Notes under the pieces: generated by a model
The model's input: the letters and a program-made list of their open reading frames with translations, nothing else
What the model was told of the DNA's origin: nothing
The model's database searches: none
Made by a program: the position numbers and the translations under genes
Source: Parcubacteria group bacterium GW2011_GWA1_56_13
Lineage (GTDB): Bacteria; Patescibacteriota; Minisyncoccia; Phycocordibacterales; Phycocordibacteraceae
NCBI GenBank assembly: GCA_001004905.1
Contig: LCRY01000002.1
Coordinates: 378,129 to 442,128 of the forward strand
Direction of reading: 5' to 3'
Length of the DNA: 64,000 bases
Shown here: piece after piece, positions 4,017 through 49,684 of the stretch
How positions within the stretch are numbered: position 1 is the stretch's first letter
How the letters are laid out: each line of letters begins with the position of its first letter

Positions 4017-5225
4017 ATGCGTATTCTTGCTATAGAAACGAGCTGTGATGAAACCGCCATCGCCATTGTCGAGGCAACGGGGGATGAAAAAGCGGCGAAG
4101 TTCCGCGTACTCGGGAATGCGCTTCTCTCGCAGGTCGAGACACACGCGAAGTATGGGGGCGTTTTTCCGTCCCTCGCGAAACGCGAGCACGCGAAAAATC
4201 TCGTTCCGATACTCGAAGCGGCGCTCGAAGAAGCGGAACTTTTGCACGAAGATACGCAGGTGATTCCGGATACCATCCGGAATCAGGTCGAGAAAATCCT
4301 TGAGCGAGAACCCGAGCTCGGCGAGCCGTTCCTCGACTTCGTCTCGGAATCCGAACGACCCGACATAGACGCCATCGCGGTAACGGCTGGTCCGGGGCTT
4401 GAACCGGCGCTATGGGTCGGCATCAATTTCGCGCGTGCTCTCTCGCTCCTCTGGGGAAAGCCCCTCGTCGCTGTTAACCACATGGAGGGCCACGTGATTT
4501 CCGCCTTGGCTAACGGAAATCACGTCGCCCCGCCCTTGGCGGGTAGCGACGCGCGAGCGTATCTTGAGATCAAAAACGTTGAGATACCGGTGCTGGCGCT
4601 TCTGATTTCCGGCGGGCACACCGAGCTCGTTGTCATGAGGAAGTGGCTCTCGTATGAACGCGTTGGCCAGACGCGCGACGACGCGGTGGGCGAAGCGTTC
4701 GATAAAGTCGCCCGCATGCTCGCGCTCCCCTATCCGGGCGGGCCTGAAATATCGCGTCTCGCCGAAGCGTCCCGCTCCGCGGGCGACACCCCTTCGTTCA
4801 CCCTGCCGCGGCCGATGATGCACTCGGATGTCTGCGATTTCTCGTTCGCGGGACTGAAGACGGCGGTGCTGTACCTGCTGAAGACGAAAACGGACCTGAC
4901 GGCCAAGGAAAAACAACACATCGCGCACGAATTCGAGAACGCCGTCGCCGAAGTGCTGTGGAGGAAGACCGAGTTGGCGCTTGGGCGGACGGGCGCGCGT
5001 ACGCTGGTCCTGGGCGGCGGCGTCTCGGCGAACGCGCACATCCGCCGCGAGTTCGCGCGCAACATGCGGCGGGAATATCCCGACCGCGCGCTGCGTATCC
5101 CTGCGGCCTCGCTCACGACCGACAACGCCATCATGATAGCCCTCGCCGGCTTCTACCGGGCGCGTCAGAACGATTTCGCGTCCGCCGATGCGCTTCAAGC
5201 CGACGGAAACGCCCGTCTCGGATAA
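4017..5225 (+). CDS. tsaD: tRNA N6-adenosine threonylcarbamoyltransferase TsaD (Kae1/Gcp family)
   Basis: MRILAIETSCDETAIAIV, VNHMEGH, LISGGHTELV, LGGGVSAN motifs, with long inserts. Confidence 0.85.
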   Translation: MRILAIETSCDETAIAIVEATGDEKAAKFRVLGNALLSQVETHAKYGGVFPSLAKREHAKNLVPILEAALEEAELLHEDTQVIPDTIRNQVEKILEREPELGEPFLDFVSESERPDIDAIAVTAGPGLEPALWVGINFARALSLLWGKPLVAVNHMEGHVISALANGNHVAPPLAGSDARAYLEIKNVEIPVLALLISGGHTELVVMRKWLSYERVGQTRDDAVGEAFDKVARMLALPYPGGPEISRLAEASRSAGDTPSFTLPRPMMHSDVCDFSFAGLKTAVLYLLKTKTDLTAKEKQHIAHEFENAVAEVLWRKTELALGRTGARTLVLGGGVSANAHIRREFARNMRREYPDRALRIPAASLTTDNAIMIALAGFYRARQNDFASADALQADGNARLG

Positions 5226-5998: not shown

Positions 5999-8209
5999 AT
6001 GCCCGAAAAATTCCTGAAACCATACGACCCCGCGGCGACGGAGTCGCGCGTCTATGCGGAGTGGGAAAAAAGCGGGCTCTTTAATCCCGACGAGTGCGTC
6101 AAACAGGGCGTCACAACGGCCGATGCCCCTCCCTACTCCATCGTGCTTCCGCCGCCGAACGTCACCGGGCGATTGCATATGGGTCACGCGCTCATGCTTG
6201 CCGTCGAGGACGCGTTCGTGCGGTACAGGCGCATGCGCGGCTTCCGCACACTCTGGGTACCCGGCACCGACCACGCAGCCATCGCGACGCAATCGGTCGT
6301 TGAGAAACAGCTTAAGAAGGACACCGGAAAGAACCGCCACGACCTCGGACGCGAGGGCTTGTTGAAGCACATCGAAGCGTTCGCGGCCGAGAGTCATGAC
6401 ACCATCGTCGGACAGCTCAAGACGATGGGTGCTTCGCTCGATTGGTCGCGCGAAGCGTTCACGCTTGATGAGGTGCGCAGCCGCGCGGTGCGCAACGTGT
6501 TCAAGCAGATGTATGATGCCGGCCTCATTTACCGGGGGCTTCGCATCGTCAACTGGGACCCAAAAGGCCAGACCACTATTTCCGACGACGAGATCGTGTA
6601 CGAAGAACGCCCCGCGAAGCTCTATACGTTCCGCTACAGCAAGGACTTCCCCATTCCGATCGCAACGACACGCCCTGAAACGAAGGTGGGCGACGTGGCG
6701 GTCGCCGTCCACCCGGATGACGCGCGATACGCCGGATTCGTTGGAAAAGAATACGACGCTCTTTTCTGCGACGTGCCCATCCATATAAAGGTGGTGGCGG
6801 ATGCCGCGGTTGACCCGGCGTTTGGTACGGGCGCCGTCGGCGTAACGCCGGCGCACAGCCAGACCGACTGGGACATCGCTGACCGGCACCTCCTTTCGCA
6901 CGAAACTATCGTCATAAACGAGTACGCGAAGATGATGGTACCCGGCCGCCTCGAAGGAAAGAAGACCTCCGAGGCGCGCGAGATGGTCGTTGCGTGGCTT
7001 ACGGACGAAGAACTGCTTGAGAAAGAAGAGCCCATCACGCAAAGCATAGCGACGGCGGAACGCACCGGCGGCATTATCGAGCCCCTGCCGAAACTACAAT
7101 GGTTCATCGCCGTGGACACGAAAATCCCGGGCCGCGGAAAAACGCTCAAGGAGCTCATGCTGGAACCCGTACGTTCCGGAGCGATCAAGATCGTTCCCGA
7201 ATATTTCGACAAAACCTATTTCCACTGGATAGAGAACCTGCGCGATTGGTGCATCAGCCGGCAGATCTGGTATGGGCACCGGATACCCGTCTGGTACCGT
7301 TCGCCTGACGCTCACGGCAAGCAAGGCGAGGAAATAATGGTCGGTATCGAGCCGAAGGAGGCCGGGTGGTCCCAGGACGAGGATACGCTTGATACGTGGT
7401 TCTCTTCGGGTTTGTGGACATTCTCGACCTTGGGATGGCCGGAGGACACTGCGGACATTAAGACATATCACCCCACCGACCTGCTCGAAACCGGTTACGA
7501 CATCCTCTTTTTCTGGGTCGCGCGCATGATACTCATGACCGAATTCGTACTGAACACCGTTCCGTTCAAAACCGTGTACCTGCACGGCCTCGTTCGCGAT
7601 GCACAGGGGCGCAAAATGTCGAAATCGCTCGGCAACAGCCTCGACCCCTTGGACATATCGGCGAAGTTCGGTGCAGATGCGGCACGGATGGCGCTCGTCG
7701 TCGGCAATACTCCGGGAACCGATCTGCGCATGAGCGAAGACAAGATAAAGGGCTACAAACACTTCGCGAACAAGCTTTGGAACATCGCGCGGTTCATTTT
7801 AGAAAATACTCCCAATGCTGACACGAATACGCCATTGACCGCCGAGGATAAAGAGGTTTTTTCCAAACTCGATGCGCTCGCCCGTGAAGTGACGGAGGAT
7901 ATGGAGAACTATCGCATCTATCTCGCCGCCGAAAAGCTCTATCACTATGCGTGGCACGAGCTCGCGGACAAGATATTGGAAGAGTCGAAACCCATATTCG
8001 CAGGAAGCGACGAAGCCGCGCGCGCTTCGCGCGCGCGGCTCCTCCTCGCGCTCCTCGATCGCACCCTGCGGCTCCTGCACCCATTCATGCCGTTCATCAC
8101 CGAGGAAATTTATCAGTCCATGCCGACGAAAGATTCCGAATTCCTGATGGTCGCCAAGTGGCCTATTCAATCTGAAAAATTGAAACTCTCTAAGTCAATT
8201 TCCAGATAA
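5999..8209 (+). CDS. valS: valine--tRNA ligase
   Basis: PPPNVTGRLHMGHA (HIGH) and KMSKSLGN (KMSKS) class I signatures of ValRS. 736 aa. The last ~14 codons lie in AT-rich DNA. Confidence 0.8.
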   Translation: MPEKFLKPYDPAATESRVYAEWEKSGLFNPDECVKQGVTTADAPPYSIVLPPPNVTGRLHMGHALMLAVEDAFVRYRRMRGFRTLWVPGTDHAAIATQSVVEKQLKKDTGKNRHDLGREGLLKHIEAFAAESHDTIVGQLKTMGASLDWSREAFTLDEVRSRAVRNVFKQMYDAGLIYRGLRIVNWDPKGQTTISDDEIVYEERPAKLYTFRYSKDFPIPIATTRPETKVGDVAVAVHPDDARYAGFVGKEYDALFCDVPIHIKVVADAAVDPAFGTGAVGVTPAHSQTDWDIADRHLLSHETIVINEYAKMMVPGRLEGKKTSEAREMVVAWLTDEELLEKEEPITQSIATAERTGGIIEPLPKLQWFIAVDTKIPGRGKTLKELMLEPVRSGAIKIVPEYFDKTYFHWIENLRDWCISRQIWYGHRIPVWYRSPDAHGKQGEEIMVGIEPKEAGWSQDEDTLDTWFSSGLWTFSTLGWPEDTADIKTYHPTDLLETGYDILFFWVARMILMTEFVLNTVPFKTVYLHGLVRDAQGRKMSKSLGNSLDPLDISAKFGADAARMALVVGNTPGTDLRMSEDKIKGYKHFANKLWNIARFILENTPNADTNTPLTAEDKEVFSKLDALAREVTEDMENYRIYLAAEKLYHYAWHELADKILEESKPIFAGSDEAARASRARLLLALLDRTLRLLHPFMPFITEEIYQSMPTKDSEFLMVAKWPIQSEKLKLSKSISR

Positions 8210-8904
8210 TCGTAATACTTCTTGTTTTCAAGATCATAACTACCGTTTTCAAATTTATTTTTCGGATTCGAGAGTTTGAGAGGGTTTTTCTGGAACAGGC
8301 AGACTTCACTCTTTAGTGGCTTGCCAGGATAAAAATGGAGAACCCATTTTTCTGTACCAGGAACAAACCGATTATTGAAGTTGAGTTTGCCTTTTGCGGC
8401 GAGATAAATGGTGGTGATTTCCTCGAGAATAAACATTATTTCTTTTTCTCCCAACCCATGTGGAGCATTTTTACAATCAAATTCAACACATGAACGAAAT
8501 TGAGCATCAGTTTTATACAAATCGAGCACTTTTGTGAATGTTGAAGGAAAGATCTCGGAATTATCTATAATGACTTGCCCAAAAGTATAGAATGAAAAAG
8601 CTTTTTTGATCCAAATATTGTCTTTCAAAACAATATTCATAAATCCATTTTTGTGCGCGACCATCAGTTCTTTATACCGATCACGGAGCATATTGGCCGG
8701 CTCATCGGAATGGAAATATAGATAATCGGAATACCAGGTCACCATTCCGATACCTTCAGTCCTATTAATCTTGGTGTCTATCCATTTTAGATCTTCAAAA
8801 CATTTTTCTGGGCTTTGGCGATTGCCTATACGGCTCATAGAAATGCCCCAAAATAGTATCCCCTCCTCGTTAGGTAATCGGCTTATGTCATGAAATCCAT
8901 GCAT
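8167..8904 (-). CDS. hypothetical protein encoded by an AT-rich (~38% GC) foreign segment
   Basis: 245-aa ORF convergent with valS and overlapping its 3' end. GC drops sharply between 8.16 and 8.90 kb. No recognisable motif. Confidence 0.5.
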   Translation of the reverse strand: MHGFHDISRLPNEEGILFWGISMSRIGNRQSPEKCFEDLKWIDTKINRTEGIGMVTWYSDYLYFHSDEPANMLRDRYKELMVAHKNGFMNIVLKDNIWIKKAFSFYTFGQVIIDNSEIFPSTFTKVLDLYKTDAQFRSCVEFDCKNAPHGLGEKEIMFILEEITTIYLAAKGKLNFNNRFVPGTEKWVLHFYPGKPLKSEVCLFQKNPLKLSNPKNKFENGSYDLENKKYYDYLEIDLESFNFSD

Positions 8905-43557: not shown

Positions 43558-43695
43558 GCAAAGGGAATACCGGCGCATCGTATGCGGCGCGGCCAAAAGG
43601 CCGCGCCGCGCGTCGTTTTGCGATCGTGTGCCTGTCCTGAAAACGCGCAGTATACTAGCAAGGTGAATATAGAAGATACCGTTGACGCGCACTTC

Positions 43696-45861
43696 ATGCG
43701 GCTCCGTCCCGACCAGAAGCGGGCGCTCGCCAAACTCGGGATACGGACTATTCGTGACCTGCTGTACCACTTCCCATCGCGGTATGAACGCTCGGGGCCT
43801 TCGACCACTATTTCCGGGGTCACGGCGGGAGCCGAGGTCACGCTTTACGGCACGGTGCGCAAGCCCGCCGTCCGCAAGACCTGGAAAAGCCGCCGGCCTA
43901 TCGCCGAAGCATGGCTCGAGGACGCGTCAGGGAAACTCAAGATGATGTGGTTCTCCCAGCCCTATATCGCCAAAACGCTCCACGACGGTATGGCGGTGAA
44001 AGTGAGCGGGCGGGTGGCCGGCGCGGGTGCGAAAACGTATCTCGCCAATCCGTCCATCGAACGATCCCCCGTCGCGCCCGAAGCGGCGCACGACACTCTT
44101 TTCTACCAAGGTGGAACCTTGTACGGCTCAGTACAAGGTTCCACCTTGAATGCCGCGCTGTATCCGGTCTATCCGGAAAGCCGAGGAATTTCCTCGCTCT
44201 GGTTCTTGCACGCCTTAAGGAAAGTATTCGAGGAGCGCGCGCACGAGAACATCGCGGACCCTATCCCAAAAGAGCTCCTCGCGCGCTATAGCCTCCCGTC
44301 GCTTCCCGCAGCGCTTGTGTTCATGCATGCGCCGCGTCGGTTCTCCGACGCGACGGCGGCGCGCAAGCGTTTCGCGTTCGAGGAAGTATTCGCCCTCCAG
44401 ATAGTGATGCAGAAACGACGACGCGCGCACATATCGGAGAAGGCGCTGCCGGTTCTGGTCGACGACGGCGCGATGCGCCGTCTTGGGGATTTCGTCGCTT
44501 CATTTCCCTTCCCCGCCACCGCCGCACAGATGCGCGCGATAGACGCCATCGCGAACGATTTTGAAAAACCGCATCCGATGCTCCGCTTGCTTGAGGGCGA
44601 TGTGGGGAGCGGTAAGACCGCGGTCGCTGCAGCGACCGCGTACCTCGTCGCGACTTCGACTCCGGCGGGAAGGATCGCCGGTACGCTCCAGGTCGCGTAT
44701 CTCTGCCCGACCGAGATACTCGCGAAACAGCATTTTTCCACGTTCGTTTCGTACTTCCGCGACCATCCGGTACCCATCGGGCTCATCACCGGCAGCGAAT
44801 GCCGGAAATTCCCCTCGCGCGTGCGGTACGAGGAATCCGCGAAACTGTCCCGGGCGGCATTCAAGAAAATGGCGGCGAACGGCGAGCTACCCATCATCAT
44901 CGGTACGCACGCACTCATCGAGAAATCGCTCTCGCTCAAATATTTCGCGTACGCCATCATTGACGAACAGCATCGTTTCGGCACCATACACCGACAGAAG
45001 CTTGCGACCAAAGGCACCGTCGCGCCACACCTGCTCTCCATGACGGCGACGCCCATCCCGCGCACGCTCGCGCTCACGCTCTACAGCGACCTCGATCTCA
45101 CGCTTCTGGATGAAATGCCCGCCGGAAGAAAAGCGGTAGTGACCGAAGTGCTCGCTCCCGAAAAGCGGGAACGAGCGTACGAGCGGGTACGGTCTGAACT
45201 CGCCATCGGGCACCAGGCATACGTCATCTGCCCGCGCATTGATGAACCGGACCCGGCGAAGGAACTCGCGCTTCAGGCAAAATCGGTCAAAGCCGAAGCG
45301 GCGCGCTTGCAGAAAGACGTCTTCCCCGACGCAATTATCGGCATCCTGCACAGCAAGATGACACCCGGCGACAAGGAGGAAACGATGAAAAAATTCGAAA
45401 AGGGATACATCGATATCCTCGTCGCCACGTCGGTGGTCGAGGTGGGCGTCAATGTCGCGAATGCCACCGTCATCCTCATCGAAGGCGCCGAACGCTTCGG
45501 TCTCGCTCAACTCCATCAACTCCGAGGACGCGTTATCCGCTCAACGCATCAGCCGTACTGCTTCGCCCTCCCCGAGATGTTCGGCGACGTGACGCGGGAA
45601 CGCATGAAGGCGTTCGCAAAAACGAACAATGGCTTCGAGCTCGCCGAATACGACCTTGCGCTCCGGGGCGCAGGCGAGCTTGGCGGCGGCAGACAGTGGG
45701 GGGTTTCCGACGTCGCGATGGAAGCGCTCAAAAACATCAAGCTCGTGGAAGCGGCGCGCGCCGAGGCGGCGCGCCTCGTCGAGATAGACCCCGGGTTGAA
45801 AAATCATTCCGCGCTCGCCCTGCGCGCGGCGCACGCCGACCGTGAGATGCATTTGGAGTAG
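43696..45861 (+). CDS. recG: ATP-dependent DNA helicase RecG
   Basis: Wedge/OB domain, helicase motifs GDVGSGKT, DEQHRFG, ATPIPRTL, HQLRGRV. The start may lie upstream (ORF track 43582). Confidence 0.85.
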   Translation: MRLRPDQKRALAKLGIRTIRDLLYHFPSRYERSGPSTTISGVTAGAEVTLYGTVRKPAVRKTWKSRRPIAEAWLEDASGKLKMMWFSQPYIAKTLHDGMAVKVSGRVAGAGAKTYLANPSIERSPVAPEAAHDTLFYQGGTLYGSVQGSTLNAALYPVYPESRGISSLWFLHALRKVFEERAHENIADPIPKELLARYSLPSLPAALVFMHAPRRFSDATAARKRFAFEEVFALQIVMQKRRRAHISEKALPVLVDDGAMRRLGDFVASFPFPATAAQMRAIDAIANDFEKPHPMLRLLEGDVGSGKTAVAAATAYLVATSTPAGRIAGTLQVAYLCPTEILAKQHFSTFVSYFRDHPVPIGLITGSECRKFPSRVRYEESAKLSRAAFKKMAANGELPIIIGTHALIEKSLSLKYFAYAIIDEQHRFGTIHRQKLATKGTVAPHLLSMTATPIPRTLALTLYSDLDLTLLDEMPAGRKAVVTEVLAPEKRERAYERVRSELAIGHQAYVICPRIDEPDPAKELALQAKSVKAEAARLQKDVFPDAIIGILHSKMTPGDKEETMKKFEKGYIDILVATSVVEVGVNVANATVILIEGAERFGLAQLHQLRGRVIRSTHQPYCFALPEMFGDVTRERMKAFAKTNNGFELAEYDLALRGAGELGGGRQWGVSDVAMEALKNIKLVEAARAEAARLVEIDPGLKNHSALALRAAHADREMHLE

Positions 45862-45979
45862 TGTCGCCCTAGCAACGTAAAAAATGGTGTGTTATTATGC
45901 CGTCAGTCGCTCGCCAAGGTCGAGATGACTGAGGACGGAGCGGCAATTCTTTTTCTTTCACACGATCTGGAGGTGTACG

Positions 45980-46384
45980 ATGAACGCTAAGTTCGCATCC
46001 AGTATCATCCTTTCCATCGTTTGCGCCATCAGCTTGTCCTTTTCGAATCCTGTTCTCGCCGGCGACAAGCTGACTAGCCAGAAAGTCCACAATGCCGTAT
46101 GGCAGTTCCTCGAAGGCAGCGCGGGCGGCTTGCAGGTCATAGGCGTCCTGGAGGTACCGCAACAAAACGTTGCGAAGGCAGATTTGGTCATCCAGAACTG
46201 GCTCCTTGCCACCCCGAAAAATGACCCGGTCACTGCATATGCCCTTGGGCCTGGTGGACAGACATTCAAGTGGTCGGGGCGAGCCGTCGCAGTATTCGTG
46301 CACTACAACGATGGGCGATGGGTACTGAATCGGGTCGCCTTCGAACGAGGAACGTTCGATAACCTGAACATCGTTGCCAGGTGA
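45980..46384 (+). CDS. small secreted protein (134 aa) on a ~650-bp segment bracketed by 28-bp direct repeats
   Basis: GGAGGTG SD, signal peptide MNAKFASSIILSIVCAISLSFSNPVLAG. Confidence 0.55.
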   Translation: MNAKFASSIILSIVCAISLSFSNPVLAGDKLTSQKVHNAVWQFLEGSAGGLQVIGVLEVPQQNVAKADLVIQNWLLATPKNDPVTAYALGPGGQTFKWSGRAVAVFVHYNDGRWVLNRVAFERGTFDNLNIVAR

Positions 46385-46479
46385 TAGCGATAGCGGACCC
46401 TCCACAACCTCACCGAGCGTGGGGTTGTTTATTTACCCCGGCTCCACGGGATTCGAACCGCTGCGCTTCGCGCCTCCCG

Positions 46480-46507
46480 CGCCGACCGTGAGATGCATTT
46501 GGAGTAG
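46480..46507 (+). repeat. 28-bp exact direct repeat of the recG 3' end (45834..45861)
   Basis: cgccgaccgtgagatgcatttggagtag occurs at both positions. A degenerate tRNA-like T-arm fragment (gggattcgaacc) lies just upstream at ~46449. Confidence 0.8.
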
Positions 46508-46612
46508 TCGTGCGCTACAGTATCAGAACGCCCATCCGTATGATTACATACTGTGTGGTCGTTCGGAGAATATGAGAACGAACGAGGAAATTCATCTCAT
46601 GTTTCCTCACTC

Positions 46613-46689
46613 CCACCCGTAGCTCAGCTGGTTAGAGCATCGAGCTTATACCTCGAGGGTCCTTGGTTCGAATCCAAGCGGGTGGACCA
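46613..46689 (+). tRNA. tRNA-Ile(TAT), CCA encoded
   Basis: ccacccg tagctcagctggttagagc a tcgag-ctTATac-ctcga gggtc cttggttcgaatccaag cgggtgg acca. Ile-type body with a UAU anticodon. Confidence 0.75.
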
Positions 46690-46691
46690 GT

Positions 46692-48641
46692 TTACGCGAT
46701 GTCGCCGGAGCCAACGGGAGCGATGGTGATACCTGGCTCCTCTTCTTTTTTCTTCGGCGTGATGCCGTTCGCGATGAGGATTTTCTCGAATTCGTGGCGC
46801 TCGACGGTCTCCTTTTCGATGAGTTCCTTGGCGATGGCGTCGAGCGCGGTACGGTGCTCGGTGATGACCTTTTTTGCGCGAGATTTCGCCTCGTCAATGA
46901 TGCGGGCGACTTCGGCGTCTATCTGTGCCGCGACCTGCTCGGAGTACGGTTCGTTCCCGAGGTTCCGCTCGCCGAAGGCGATGGGGCCCATCCGCTCGCT
47001 CATTCCGTAGCGGGCGACCATGTCGCGTGCAAGCGCGGTAATGACCATCAGGTCGTTCGACGGCCCGGTCGTCACGTCGTCGAAGAGCAACTCTTCGGTA
47101 ACGTAGCCGCCGAGCGTTGCCGCGATATCGTCGAGGAACTGTTTTCTCGACTGCATCTTTTTATCTTCAAACGGAAGCTTCAGCGTATAGCCGGCGGCGC
47201 GGCCGCGGCTGATGATGGAAATTTTGTGTACCGGGTCGGCGTTCGGAAGTATCGAGGAGACGAGTGCGTGTCCGGCTTCGTGGTATGCCGTCAGCTCTTT
47301 TTCTTTCTTCGTGAGCAAGTGTGATTTGCGCTCCGGGCCGAGCATCACCTTTTCTATCGAGCGTATAAGGTCGTACTGCGTCACCTCTTTACGATTCTCG
47401 CGTGCGGCGAGTATCGCCCCTTCGTTCATGAGCGAATAGAGTTCGGCGCCCGAGAAGCCCGGCGTCCGCTCCGCGATGACCGCGAGCGCCACATCCGGGC
47501 CCAAGGGCTTCGTGCGCGCGTGTATCTTCAATATCTCCTCGCGGTCGCGGCGGTCCGGCAGGTCTATGGTGACGCGCCGGTCGAAACGGCCCGGGCGCAG
47601 AAGCGCGGGGTCGAGTACGTCGGGTCTGTTGGTCGCCGCCATGACAACGACTTTCTCGGTCGGCTCGAATCCGTCCATTTCCACGAGTATCTGGTTCAGC
47701 GTCTGTTCGCGCTCATCGTTGCCGCCGCCCACTCCCGCGCCGCGCACGCGCCCGACCGCGTCTATCTCATCAACGAAGATGATGGCGGGTGCCGCTTTTT
47801 TCGCGAGCTGGAACAGGTCGCGCACGCGGGAAGCACCGACGCCGACGAACATTTCGACGAATTCGGAGCCCGAAATGGAGAAGAACGGCACACCCGCTTC
47901 GCCCGCGACCGCGCGTGCAAGCAACGTCTTGCCCGTGCCCGGCGCGCCCATGAGGATAATGCCCTTCGGTATGCGCGCGCCGATGTCGAGGAATTTCTTC
48001 GGACTCTTGAGAAAGTCGACTATCTCAAGAAGCTCTTCCTTCGCCTCGCGCGCCCCCGCGATATCCTTGAAGGTGACGCGTTGTGAAAGATCGGCGGGGT
48101 CGGTCACGCGCGCCTTGGACTGGCCGAAACTGAAGGCCTGCATGCCCGCACCCCGCACTTGCCGCGAAAGGAACCAAAATAAAAACGCGATGAAAAGAAG
48201 CGGGAGTACGATCGGCGCGAGCGTGAGGAACCAGAATTCAAACCCGGATTGTCCCTGTATCGTTATGGAAACCTTGGTGAGTTCCTGCGGCGTAACGCCG
48301 TAAGTCGCGAGCGTCTCCGGAAGTCCCGCGGAAGGGTCCTTGCGCGAGGTTTTTTCCGCTCCGTCGGTATAGACGAGGTCAAGCGAATCGCCCCTCACGG
48401 TGATCGACTGCACCTTCCCCGCCGCGACGTCCGCAGCAACGACCGAAAGAGGAATGTCTGAACTCGGCTCTACAAGACCGGAAAAGAGCGAATAGGCGCT
48501 CATGAGGACGAGGAATATGAGGACCGTCGTCGTTAGGTTGCCGAAGAACGACGGGCCGCCGAAAAACGAGCGCATGTTCCGCCGGAACGGCGGTATTGAG
48601 GGCTTCTTCCCTTTTGGTTTCTTCGCCGGTGTGCGAGGCAT
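46692..48641 (-). CDS. ftsH: ATP-dependent zinc metalloprotease FtsH
   Basis: Two TM segments, Walker [19 protein letters not shown] zinc site. ATG 48641 preferred over the ORF track start 48932, whose Pro-rich extension overlaps smpB. Confidence 0.85.
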
Positions 48642-48726
48642 GGCAGGTACTATACCTCGCGCTATGGTGAAAGTCATGCTTCGTATGGCCGGGTAGCCCG
48701 CTATTTTGCGGGGTATACTCTGTCGT

Positions 48727-49170
48727 ATGACCCTCGTCGCATACAAGAAAGCGTTGCTCAAATACATCCCGCTTGAGAGCTTTTCTGCGGGACTCGAACT
48801 TTTCGGCACCGAAGTGAAAGCATTGCGAAGCAAGCTCGGCTCTTTAGAGGGTGCGCGTGTGGTGGTGCGGGGAGGCGAAGCGTTCATCGTCGGTATGACC
48901 ATTCCGCCGTACCAGACCGCAAATACTAACAAGAGTTATGAGCCGGACCGCGCGCGACGCCTGCTGCTCACCAAAAGAGAGATAGCCGCGCTCGCCGACG
49001 CCGAAGCAAAAAAGGGCTTGACAATTATACCTCTTGAGGTGTATACTGCAGGCACATTCGTGAAGGCGCGCATCGCCATCGTTCGCGGCAAGGGCAAGGA
49101 GGACCGCCGCGAGGACCTGAAGAAGCGCGACGCCGAGCGGGAACGGGAGCGTGTCCTGAAAAATCGCTGA
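48727..49170 (+). CDS. smpB: SsrA-binding protein SmpB
   Basis: ALLKYIPLESFSAGLELFGTEVKALR...GGEAFIVGMTIPPY conserved SmpB core. tmRNA lies immediately downstream. Confidence 0.85.
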   Translation: MTLVAYKKALLKYIPLESFSAGLELFGTEVKALRSKLGSLEGARVVVRGGEAFIVGMTIPPYQTANTNKSYEPDRARRLLLTKREIAALADAEAKKGLTIIPLEVYTAGTFVKARIAIVRGKGKEDRREDLKKRDAERERERVLKNR

Positions 49171-49210: not shown

Positions 49211-49613
49211 GGGGGTGACCGGCTTTGACGGTCTGTACCTTGAAATGCGTGCGACGCAGTGCACTCCCGCTCACCACTGTAAACTGGCGGGAAACAAACT
49301 TGCCAAGAACACTCTTGCAAGCGCGAAGCAGTCGCCTTACTTCGGTAAGGTCGGCGATATCGCGTTCGCCTACGCGACGGCTCGCGGCTAACGCCCGTTC
49401 ATCCTCCCGGGTTTTCGCAGCCGGAGGCATGGGCGGAATTATCTGCGGAATCGGTCCTTCGTTCTCCCGAACTGAGGATCTAAACAAGGGATCGGGCAGG
49501 AATGGTTTCGCCGGCGTTCCTCGCATCCTGCCTTAGACACGAACGTTGGCTATGCGTCGTAGAAGCGCTTTCATAGACGGATTCGGACCGGGGTCCAATT
49601 CCCCGCACCTCCA
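49211..49613 (+). ncRNA. ssrA: tmRNA (SsrA), one-piece
   Basis: 5' GGGGGUGACCGGCUUUGACGG, 3' tRNA-like domain GGACCGGGGUCCAAUUCCCCG CACCUCC A. Candidate tag ORF ends ...AFAYATARG-TAA at 49389-49391. TGgTATTCT -10-like element at 49193. Confidence 0.8.
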
Positions 49614-49684
49614 CAAAATAACGAGTCCTGAAAGGACGACTATATTTTGTGAGAGTACTGAGTTCTGTCCGCAGAACGAACGTG

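Follow-up and report, generated by a model that had tools for sequence, protein, structure and literature searches.

Genomic islands flanked by a duplicated gene 3' end are well known, and this includes islands without an integrase, such as cis-mobilizable elements (CIMEs), pseudo-staphylococcal cassette chromosome (pseudo-SCC) elements and the remnants of tycheposons. CIMEs at the 3' end of fda in Streptococcus thermophilus and pseudo-SCC elements at the 3' end of rlmH/orfX are integrase-less islands between attachment (att) sites. Phage 21 and e14 in icd, Salmonella genomic island 1 (SGI1) in trmE and the streptococcal integrative conjugative elements in rplL, guaA and comparable genes also insert at a gene 3' end. 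Here we analyzed a stretch of 64,000 nucleotides (nt) from Parcubacteria group bacterium GW2011_GWA1_56_13 (the window; assembly GCA_001004905.1, contig LCRY01000002.1, positions 378,129 to 442,128 of the forward strand), in which a short island follows the helicase gene recG. Our reading, which we hold with moderate confidence, is that an island without an integrase lies between att sites at the recG 3' end of this Candidatus Kaiserbacteria genome, that its recombinase was most likely lost from a larger element and that the island is now fixed and immobile. What is new here is the use of the last recG codons as a target, a host from the Candidate Phyla Radiation (CPR), and evidence that the hot spot is a recurrent one, coupled to the isoleucine transfer RNA gene tRNA-Ile(TAT).

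The last nine codons of recG, its stop codon and one further base are present twice as an exact direct repeat of 29 nt, one copy at each end of the island (Table 1). The original prediction described an exact 28-bp duplication of the recG end. The window indeed contains two exact copies of this 28-mer (45834-45861 and 46480-46507), and none is expected in shuffled sequence (100 shuffles, up to 3 mismatches allowed), but 28 nt is too short: the T following TAG is common to both copies, and an inexact extension runs from about -48 to +14, so that the imperfect similarity reaches ~55 nt at 82% identity. Both copies were found on eight contigs from NCBI, ENA (k141 MEGAHIT), JGI and Logan assemblies of several samples, which are 99.7-100% identical to the window over the aligned segments. 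Copy 1 preserves the reading frame of recG, whose product contains the Pfam domains RecG_wedge, DEAD, Helicase_C and RecG_dom3_C. The RecG C-terminus, ADREMHLE followed by the stop codon, is kept in relatives, and copy 1 is therefore the functional recG end. At the other end of the gene, the true start is probably downstream of 43582, because relatives align only from about residue 24. The only symmetry that can be read in the 29-nt core is an ATGCAT hexamer. A scan for inverted pairs gave one 5-nt pair that straddles the left edge of the core, in the flank, and nothing longer; neither terminal inverted repeats nor a dyad symmetry of the core was found at the window island.

Table 1. Coordinates of the features at the recG 3' end in the window and of HTH_23 proteins in related loci.
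Feature	Coordinates	Strand	Remarks
recG, target gene	43582..45861	+	Last 9 codons and stop lie within repeat copy 1
Repeat copy 1 (attL-like core)	45834..45862	+	CGCCGACCGTGAGATGCATTTGGAGTAGT; exact identity with 46480-46508
Cassette left arm	45863..45979	+	117 nt; candidate promoter and ribosome-binding site
Cargo gene, 134-amino-acid protein	45980..46384	+	N-terminal signal-peptide-like segment MNAKFASSIILSIVCAISLSFSNPVLA, followed by GD
Terminator-like hairpin	46404..46438	+	10-pair stem 46404-46428, then T-rich tail TTATTTACCC
tRNA 3'-end-like fragment	46438..46459	-	GGTTCGAATCCCGTGGAGCCGG: T-loop, 3' T-stem, acceptor-like strand
Diverged recG 3' remnant, cassette right arm	46460..46479	+	In frame, ..AALRASRA; CGCGCCTCCC type of L019 and L015 recG
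Repeat copy 2 (attR-like core)	46480..46508	+	Exact match to copy 1
Native spacer and leader upstream of tRNA-Ile	46509..46612	+	First 22 nt resemble post-recG DNA of island-free relatives
tRNA-Ile(TAT), native recG neighbour	46613..46689	+	105 nt past second repeat
ftsH, conserved right boundary of variable interval	46692..48932	-	
HTH_23 proteins in relatives	L016 8545-9255, L049 10947-11612, L054 8983-9675, L090 2603-3313, L097 3933-4610, L101 2723-3280		

The second copy is informative because of what stands before it. We aligned the 90 nt before each of the two stop codons to the recG ends of 25 relatives (the related loci carry labels such as L019). Upstream of copy 2 the DNA is recG-derived back to about -48, so that copy 2 is the end of a ~48-nt recG 3' remnant, which reads in frame as ..ALRASRADREMHLE up to the stop and is near ..SLRASLADREMHLE of L015. 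At positions -29 to -50 this DNA matches the recG of the window at 12/22, compared with 16/22 for L019 and 14/22 for L015; further upstream than -50 it resembles no recG more than at random, about 10/40 (~25%). The same sharp identity drop upstream of copy 2 is given by the multiple alignment. The fall from 29/29 to ~55% argues for a crossover between two different recG ends and not for a decaying duplication, and we read the end of the 29-nt identity as the crossover point itself, not as the edge of a simple duplication. In terms of att sites, copy 1 would be B-O-P' and copy 2 P-O-B', with a putative P arm that is a recG mimic of the related-species type and that is set off from the host sequence by a sharp boundary. 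The DNA after copy 2, TCG-TGCGCTACAG, resembles the native DNA after recG in the island-free loci L021 and L031 (CTC-TGCGTTAG and CGA-TGCGTTAG). From this arrangement the empty site is predicted as recG ...GGAGTAGTCGTGCGCTACAG, and the junction of an excised circle as ...CGCGCCTCCCG, the core and GTCGCCCTAGCAACG.

Between the repeats lies a small and complete unit. The cassette (45863-46479) and one repeat copy together make an island unit of 646 bp. A plausible promoter can be read in the left arm (TAGCAA at 45870-45875, a 17-nt spacer and an extended -10, TGtTATTAT, at 45890-45898); the consensus scan did not report it because its -35 hexamer matches only 3/6. The original prediction of a signal-peptide protein of 134 amino acids with a strong ribosome-binding site held, with GGAGGTG at 45969-45975, 6 nt before the ATG. 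The hairpin that it called weak is present, yet it has a T-rich tail behind it and looks like the cassette's own terminator. Rfam gave no match in the island beyond the flanking tRNA and the transfer-messenger RNA (tmRNA), and the folding z-scores of the right arm, -1.1 and -2.1, are unremarkable.

A further piece of the right arm resembles a tRNA. The T-arm-like motif gggattcgaacc at 46448-46459, which had been predicted as a degenerate T-arm fragment, is real and extends to a minus-strand 22-mer, but it matches no tRNA among those compared. The 22-mer stands outside the stretch that resembles recG. With up to 3 mismatches allowed it has no second copy in the window, and with up to 4 it has no match in ~135 loci of other species or other elements (L011-L161), and none in viral contigs. 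We considered it as a part of the recG remnant and rejected this, as the identity to the recG of every relative is random beyond -50. It may be an older att remnant that is borne in the right arm of the cassette.

The cargo protein, which is publicly annotated as a protein of a Candidatus Kaiserbacteria bacterium, has an NTF2/cystatin-like alpha+beta domain, or NTF2/VirB8-like fold, and its mature part would be residues 28-134. It matches no Pfam or PHROG family, and the search that the original prediction had proposed, among GenBank phages and PLSDB plasmids, gave no match either. In 5.8 billion proteins it has three homologues only, all on contigs of mobile elements. The first (P0002, locus L011, 57% identity) shares its contig with a serine recombinase, a type IV coupling protein-like ATPase, DUF932 and RadC; the second (P0003, 58% identity) with Phage_integrase, ArdC-N antirestriction and helix-turn-helix genes; the third (P0004, locus L014, 28% identity) is on a phage-like contig with HNH, NinG and Phage_integrase. 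The genes next to these homologues were considered as paralogues, and this was rejected. The gene is absent from all of the about 90 related recG loci that we compared, which were taken from species-representative genomes and metagenomes. It is thus clearly not a core gene that relatives keep in an interval lacking the repeats. Based on this absence and on the homologues on mobile-element contigs, the 134-amino-acid gene is foreign. An exhaustive profile search found the domain in a wider set of proteins, 274 clusters at 50% identity, where TPR, ankyrin, Lcl_C, CBM96 or peptidoglycan-binding modules are frequent fusion partners; such fusions suggest an extracytoplasmic protein. We infer that the cargo is expressed and secreted.

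How does the same site look in relatives? The gene order lemA ... recG, tRNA-Ile(TAT), ftsH, smpB is conserved among the related loci. The original prediction proposed to look for an unoccupied site, and such a site was found: recG, tRNA-Ile and ftsH form a compact, island-free arrangement of 107-153 nt in L021, L088, L102 and L109, a comparison that is made between species only (RecG identity at most 84%). In other species the recG-ftsH interval is up to 7.4 kb. The tRNA gene between recG and ftsH is on either strand, depending on the species; there are at least three very different alleles of it, and partial copies are found in several species. As interval length, tRNA strand, tRNA alleles and partial copies are all variable, this interval is a recombination hot spot. 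In the window, the tRNA-Ile gene predicted 100 bp beyond the repeat was confirmed as tRNA-Ile(TAT) (Table 1), and in relatives this gene is itself a recombination target.

When each locus was searched for a repeat of its own recG end, two further clear cases emerged. In L019, whose RecG is 78% identical, the last 42 nt of recG (7131-7172) recur at 7655-7696 with 40/42 identical positions. The two copies enclose a 60-amino-acid open reading frame (ORF) and an 84-amino-acid ParE/RelE-like toxin, a toxin-antitoxin pair with a ~20 nt spacer on each side, and copy 2 is followed by a minus-strand 3' fragment of tRNA-Ile, a 156-amino-acid ORF and an intact minus-strand tRNA-Ile. In L096 (RecG 80% identical) the 17 nt ATGCATTTGGAGTAATG are present at 4043-4059 and 4411-4427 and enclose a unit of 351 nt (4060-4410; 368 bp with one repeat copy). 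This unit has a TTGACA-17-TATACT promoter, a strong ribosome-binding site, a 28-codon ORF (4208-4294) and a strong terminator, and its copy 2 directly abuts a minus-strand tRNA-Ile. The L096 transcript has an unusually good folding score (z = -3.2), and the unit has no Rfam match; it may encode a small toxin, a peptide or a structured RNA. The three cassettes are mutually unrelated and each is found in one species only, with repeats of 17, 29 and 42 nt in L096, the window and L019. ATGCATTTGGARTAR is common to all three repeats, whose right ends coincide with the stop codon or lie at most two bases past it. The small cassettes of L019 and L096 are an independent recurrence at the same site.

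A second mini-island was seen in L019 at 7697-8441, where tRNA repeats flank the 156-amino-acid ORF (PHROG 17560, of unknown function) and there is no integrase.

A mechanism that fits these data is that the recG 3' end of the host (attB) recombined with mobile DNA that had its own copy of a recG end (attP), with the crossover within the 29 identical bases. Such a crossover would keep recG intact on the left (attL, 45834-45862) and would leave the element's own recG mimic, ~48 nt, at the far end of the insert, where it is joined to native DNA (attR, 46460-46508). The insert would bring a self-contained expression unit with promoter, ribosome-binding site, the 134-amino-acid protein and terminator. 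The recombinase would then most likely have been lost by deletion from a larger integrative element, and the island would now be fixed and immobile in the population. We infer that a tyrosine-type integrase catalyzed the event and that a larger parent element existed. As no integrase was found, the recombination may also have proceeded by other means, and the island may be a cassette that had no integrase from the start, since all three cassettes are very compact.

Several observations weigh against an att-flanked island that decayed from a larger element, and first among them is the missing enzyme. The only ORF of the island is that of the 134-amino-acid protein, so the island contains neither an integrase nor another recombinase. 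None was seen among 10 unknown window ORFs that were scanned, or by phmmer with tyrosine and serine recombinase queries among all window ORFs of at least 90 amino acids, or in the recG-ftsH interval of any relative by Pfam of the gap ORFs and phmmer, although such screens would miss divergent enzymes and single hits could be hidden in the pooled Pfam scan of 107 ORFs downstream of recG in relatives. The claim of the original prediction that no integrase remains was thus borne out in the island, the window ORFs and the relatives' recG-ftsH intervals. A parent element with a recG-end attP was also not found in viral or metagenome collections: the exact 24-nt core has no match in metagenome or viral contigs, neither as an empty site nor as attP, and DNA-pattern scans of contigs gave neither excision products nor an intact parent element. 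No cognate autonomous element stands beside recG in the ~90 loci, in a search that was not exhaustive. The nearest relatives reach at most 81-84% RecG identity, so that no closer RecG is available for a strain-level empty site and the empty sites are compared between species only. The guanine-plus-cytosine (GC) content of the island, 55.6%, is not distinct from the 56.4% of the window. The tRNA-like fragment is not accounted for, and it is placed before the recG remnant and not after it. Finally, all three cassettes are very compact (368-646 bp), which is awkward for three independent deletion remnants.

Two candidates were set aside in these searches. A degenerate recG-end pattern gave 15 matches in viral contigs, all by chance, in low-GC phages without recG, and a foreign base composition as a mark of the island was rejected with its undistinctive GC content. 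Large serine recombinases appear only at a distance, outside the recG-ftsH interval, in four loci; these ORFs, several kb off, are L056 147-1715, L106 8012-9805, L127 20434-22086 and L145 16033-17745.

The features of other element classes were looked for as well. The island is not a transposon or insertion sequence: it has no terminal inverted repeats and no transposase, and the repeats, of 17, 29 and 42 nt, have no fixed duplication length. An attC imperfect palindrome is absent, the window screens gave no integron integrase, and the cassette has promoter-like signals of its own. Xer-type 28-nt sites, with 11-nt arms and a 6-nt spacer, are absent from the core. The island has the direct repeats of an integrative element without an integrase in it, and, like a CIME, it lies between att sites and contains neither recombination nor conjugation modules, with no cognate element found beside recG in the ~90 loci. 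The original prediction of a decayed integrative element is therefore borne out in part. A foreign insertion by recombination, with a repeat that keeps recG intact, is well supported by the absence of the gene in relatives, the homologues on mobile contigs, the compact island-free sites, the remnant of a foreign type with its sharp boundary and the recurrence; neither an integrase nor a parent with attP was found, and the island may not be a decayed one.

One possible option, which we consider unlikely but better than the other alternatives, is that the cassette never had an integrase and that minimal recG-end cassettes are inserted and removed by a recombinase that acts in trans, from another place in the genome or from a helper element, much as integron cassettes, Acinetobacter pdif modules or CIMEs that travel with an incoming integrative element are. 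Three species with different cargo would fit this, as all have tight, self-contained units of 368-646 bp that stand tens of nt from the repeats and carry no recombinase in cis, and so would the ATGCATTTGGARTAR that all three repeats contain before they end at the stop codon. However, the screens identified no candidate for such a trans recombinase. Each cassette is seen in one species only, at a single site and not in circular form, the protein cluster of the window cargo holds this one locus only, and the core is without dyad symmetry and without an Xer- or attC-like architecture. In a wider and slightly more doubtful form, Kaiserbacteria and other Paceibacteria would have a cassette system at the last codons of recG, in which a recombinase located elsewhere inserts or exchanges minimal units (a secreted protein, a toxin-antitoxin pair, a small ORF or RNA) whose only other part is a recG-end mimic; the system would be coupled to the adjacent tRNA-Ile(TAT), a gene with repeated inversions and replacements.

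Another explanation, which we find improbable, is insertion of the RecA type, in which a circular or circularized DNA from related Kaiserbacteria, with ~50 nt of the donor's recG end and the cargo, entered by a single Campbell-type crossover. The recG remnant of a related species in the right arm is what this predicts, the identity differs in length between the cases (17, 29 and 42 nt) as expected from local homology, and no integrase would be needed, in line with none being found. Yet all three events have their right boundary at the stop codon, which is unexpected for random homology, and the relatives of the cargo sit in elements with dedicated recombinases. In addition, 17-29 nt of identity do not exceed the length that RecA usually needs to recombine efficiently.

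More improbable still is an illegitimate insertion that accompanied or followed a local duplication of the recG end, with the duplication retained because this end overlaps downstream signals such as the -35 box of the tRNA-Ile promoter, so that only insertions which duplicate the overlap would be tolerated. Copy 2 does contain TTGGAG (46498-46503), which is followed after a 16-nt spacer by TATCAG and may be a tRNA-Ile promoter with its -35 box in the last recG codons; L021 has a similar arrangement before its plus-strand tRNA-Ile, as does the inverted block of L024 described below. However, this promoter match is below the scan threshold, and no promoter role is possible in L019 and L096, where the DNA after copy 2 is the 3' end of a tRNA on the minus strand. 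A local duplication also cannot explain DNA like that of other species upstream of copy 2. Both this insertion and that of the RecA type are less likely than an att-flanked island: the right boundary is the same in all repeats, and in L019 and L096 copy 2 does not serve as a promoter. An assembly artefact, by a chimeric join or loop at the common 28-29-mer, can practically be dismissed: the window is built from metagenome assemblies and the short contigs L009 and L010 end inside or near the island, but eight contigs, assembled by four pipelines from several samples, carry both copies at 99.7-100% identity, k=141 far exceeds the repeat length and L010 is not a closed circle, since its two ends differ. 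L010 had also been considered as a circular 646-bp contig or a population bubble, which was rejected because its ends are not identical and it does not fit the k-mer geometry.

Other observations concern the tRNA-Ile gene and the DNA around it. tRNA-Ile(TAT) flips strand between close species, for example at L017 7193-7267, L021 5602-5676 and L019 8365-8441 and 8558-8586. In L019 a plus-strand 3' fragment of the window-type tRNA allele stands beside ftsH, and the intact minus-strand gene belongs to another allele. Together with the strand flips and the very different alleles, this suggests that the tRNA-Ile gene is repeatedly replaced by incoming DNA. Partial tRNA-Ile copies are also found in L022, L050, L053 and L067. 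The window block 46495-46689 (recG-end-like ATTGAGTAG, CGCTAC, TATATT, an 80-nt leader and tRNA-Ile) has a counterpart at L024 7043-7260, where it is inverted, and the tRNA therefore moves with a piece of the recG end; the last 80 nt of the native spacer and leader are kept in L024 and move there together with the tRNA.

Directly beside a minus-strand tRNA-Ile, many relatives have proteins of 220-236 amino acids with an N-terminal HTH_23 (Table 1), and one neighbour has the LAGLIDADG-like motif LIAGLFLYWGEGTK. The HTH_23 proteins may be free-standing homing endonucleases that move with the tRNA gene. An IS200/RayT-like ORF and an IS3 OrfA-like ORF, judged by eye, were seen in L093 (4651-5340) and L104 (18256-22101), and the pooled ORF scan gave a DDE transposase and a Prim-Pol match around recG in relatives. 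On the far side of the interval, the real start of ftsH is probably internal, because the called genes give 627 amino acids. The tmRNA adjoins smpB at window 49211-49614, with a predicted tag AKQSPYFGKVGDIAFAYATARG that differs from those of relatives (such as AKNTLASVKSPYFGMKDFAFAYA); this tag call is uncertain, as posterior probabilities in the Rfam alignment are low over the coding part. One deposited NCBI assembly, L001 (GCA_003531405.1), is without 104 nt (window 46652-46755), which include the 3' half of tRNA-Ile and the ftsH end, and without 64 nt in the tmRNA region (window 49237-49300). Both stretches are present in all other assemblies, and their absence is probably an assembly or polishing defect in L001.

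Little is known about how CPR bacteria with their tiny genomes take up genes, and the recG 3' end with tRNA-Ile(TAT) is a recurrent entry point in at least three species. If the recombinase and the parent elements are found, the site could be used for tracing horizontal transfer in these uncultured organisms and as a natural landing pad for genetic tools. For annotation, the 134-amino-acid gene should be regarded as accessory, acquired cargo, and the second recG-end copy as a recombination scar and not as a gene fragment. If cassettes moved in trans turn out to be the true explanation, ultra-small CPR genomes would have a gene-shuffling platform similar to integrons or pdif modules.

Compared with known systems, the island shares with integron cassettes and pdif modules a single-gene or toxin-antitoxin cassette without its own recombinase at a fixed site. 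The window repeat differs from them in having neither an attC-like palindrome nor an 11-6-11 Xer site; there is no IntI, attI and Pc platform in the window, and the cassette has its own promoter. The Prochlorococcus tycheposons are similar in that a hot spot beside a tRNA gene of a streamlined genome holds small modules between partial repeats of the target, many of them without a recombinase, but they target tRNA genes and are defined by a tyrosine recombinase family, whereas here the target is the end of a protein gene and no such enzyme was found. As in prophages and integrative elements at gene 3' ends, the element brings a copy of the gene end that preserves the ORF, the far junction is marked by the displaced or mimic fragment, and the core identity is followed by a sharp drop; those elements encode an integrase next to the att site and span kilobases to tens of kilobases, whereas the window island has one gene and no integrase. 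From CIMEs and pseudo-SCC elements it differs in its size of 0.65 kb, its target recG and its CPR host, and in that no cognate integrase element was found here; an integrase-bearing element with the same att specificity is not known. What it has in common with them is a short island between direct repeats, one of which is the 3' end of a conserved housekeeping gene that is kept whole, with foreign cargo and without recombination or transfer genes.

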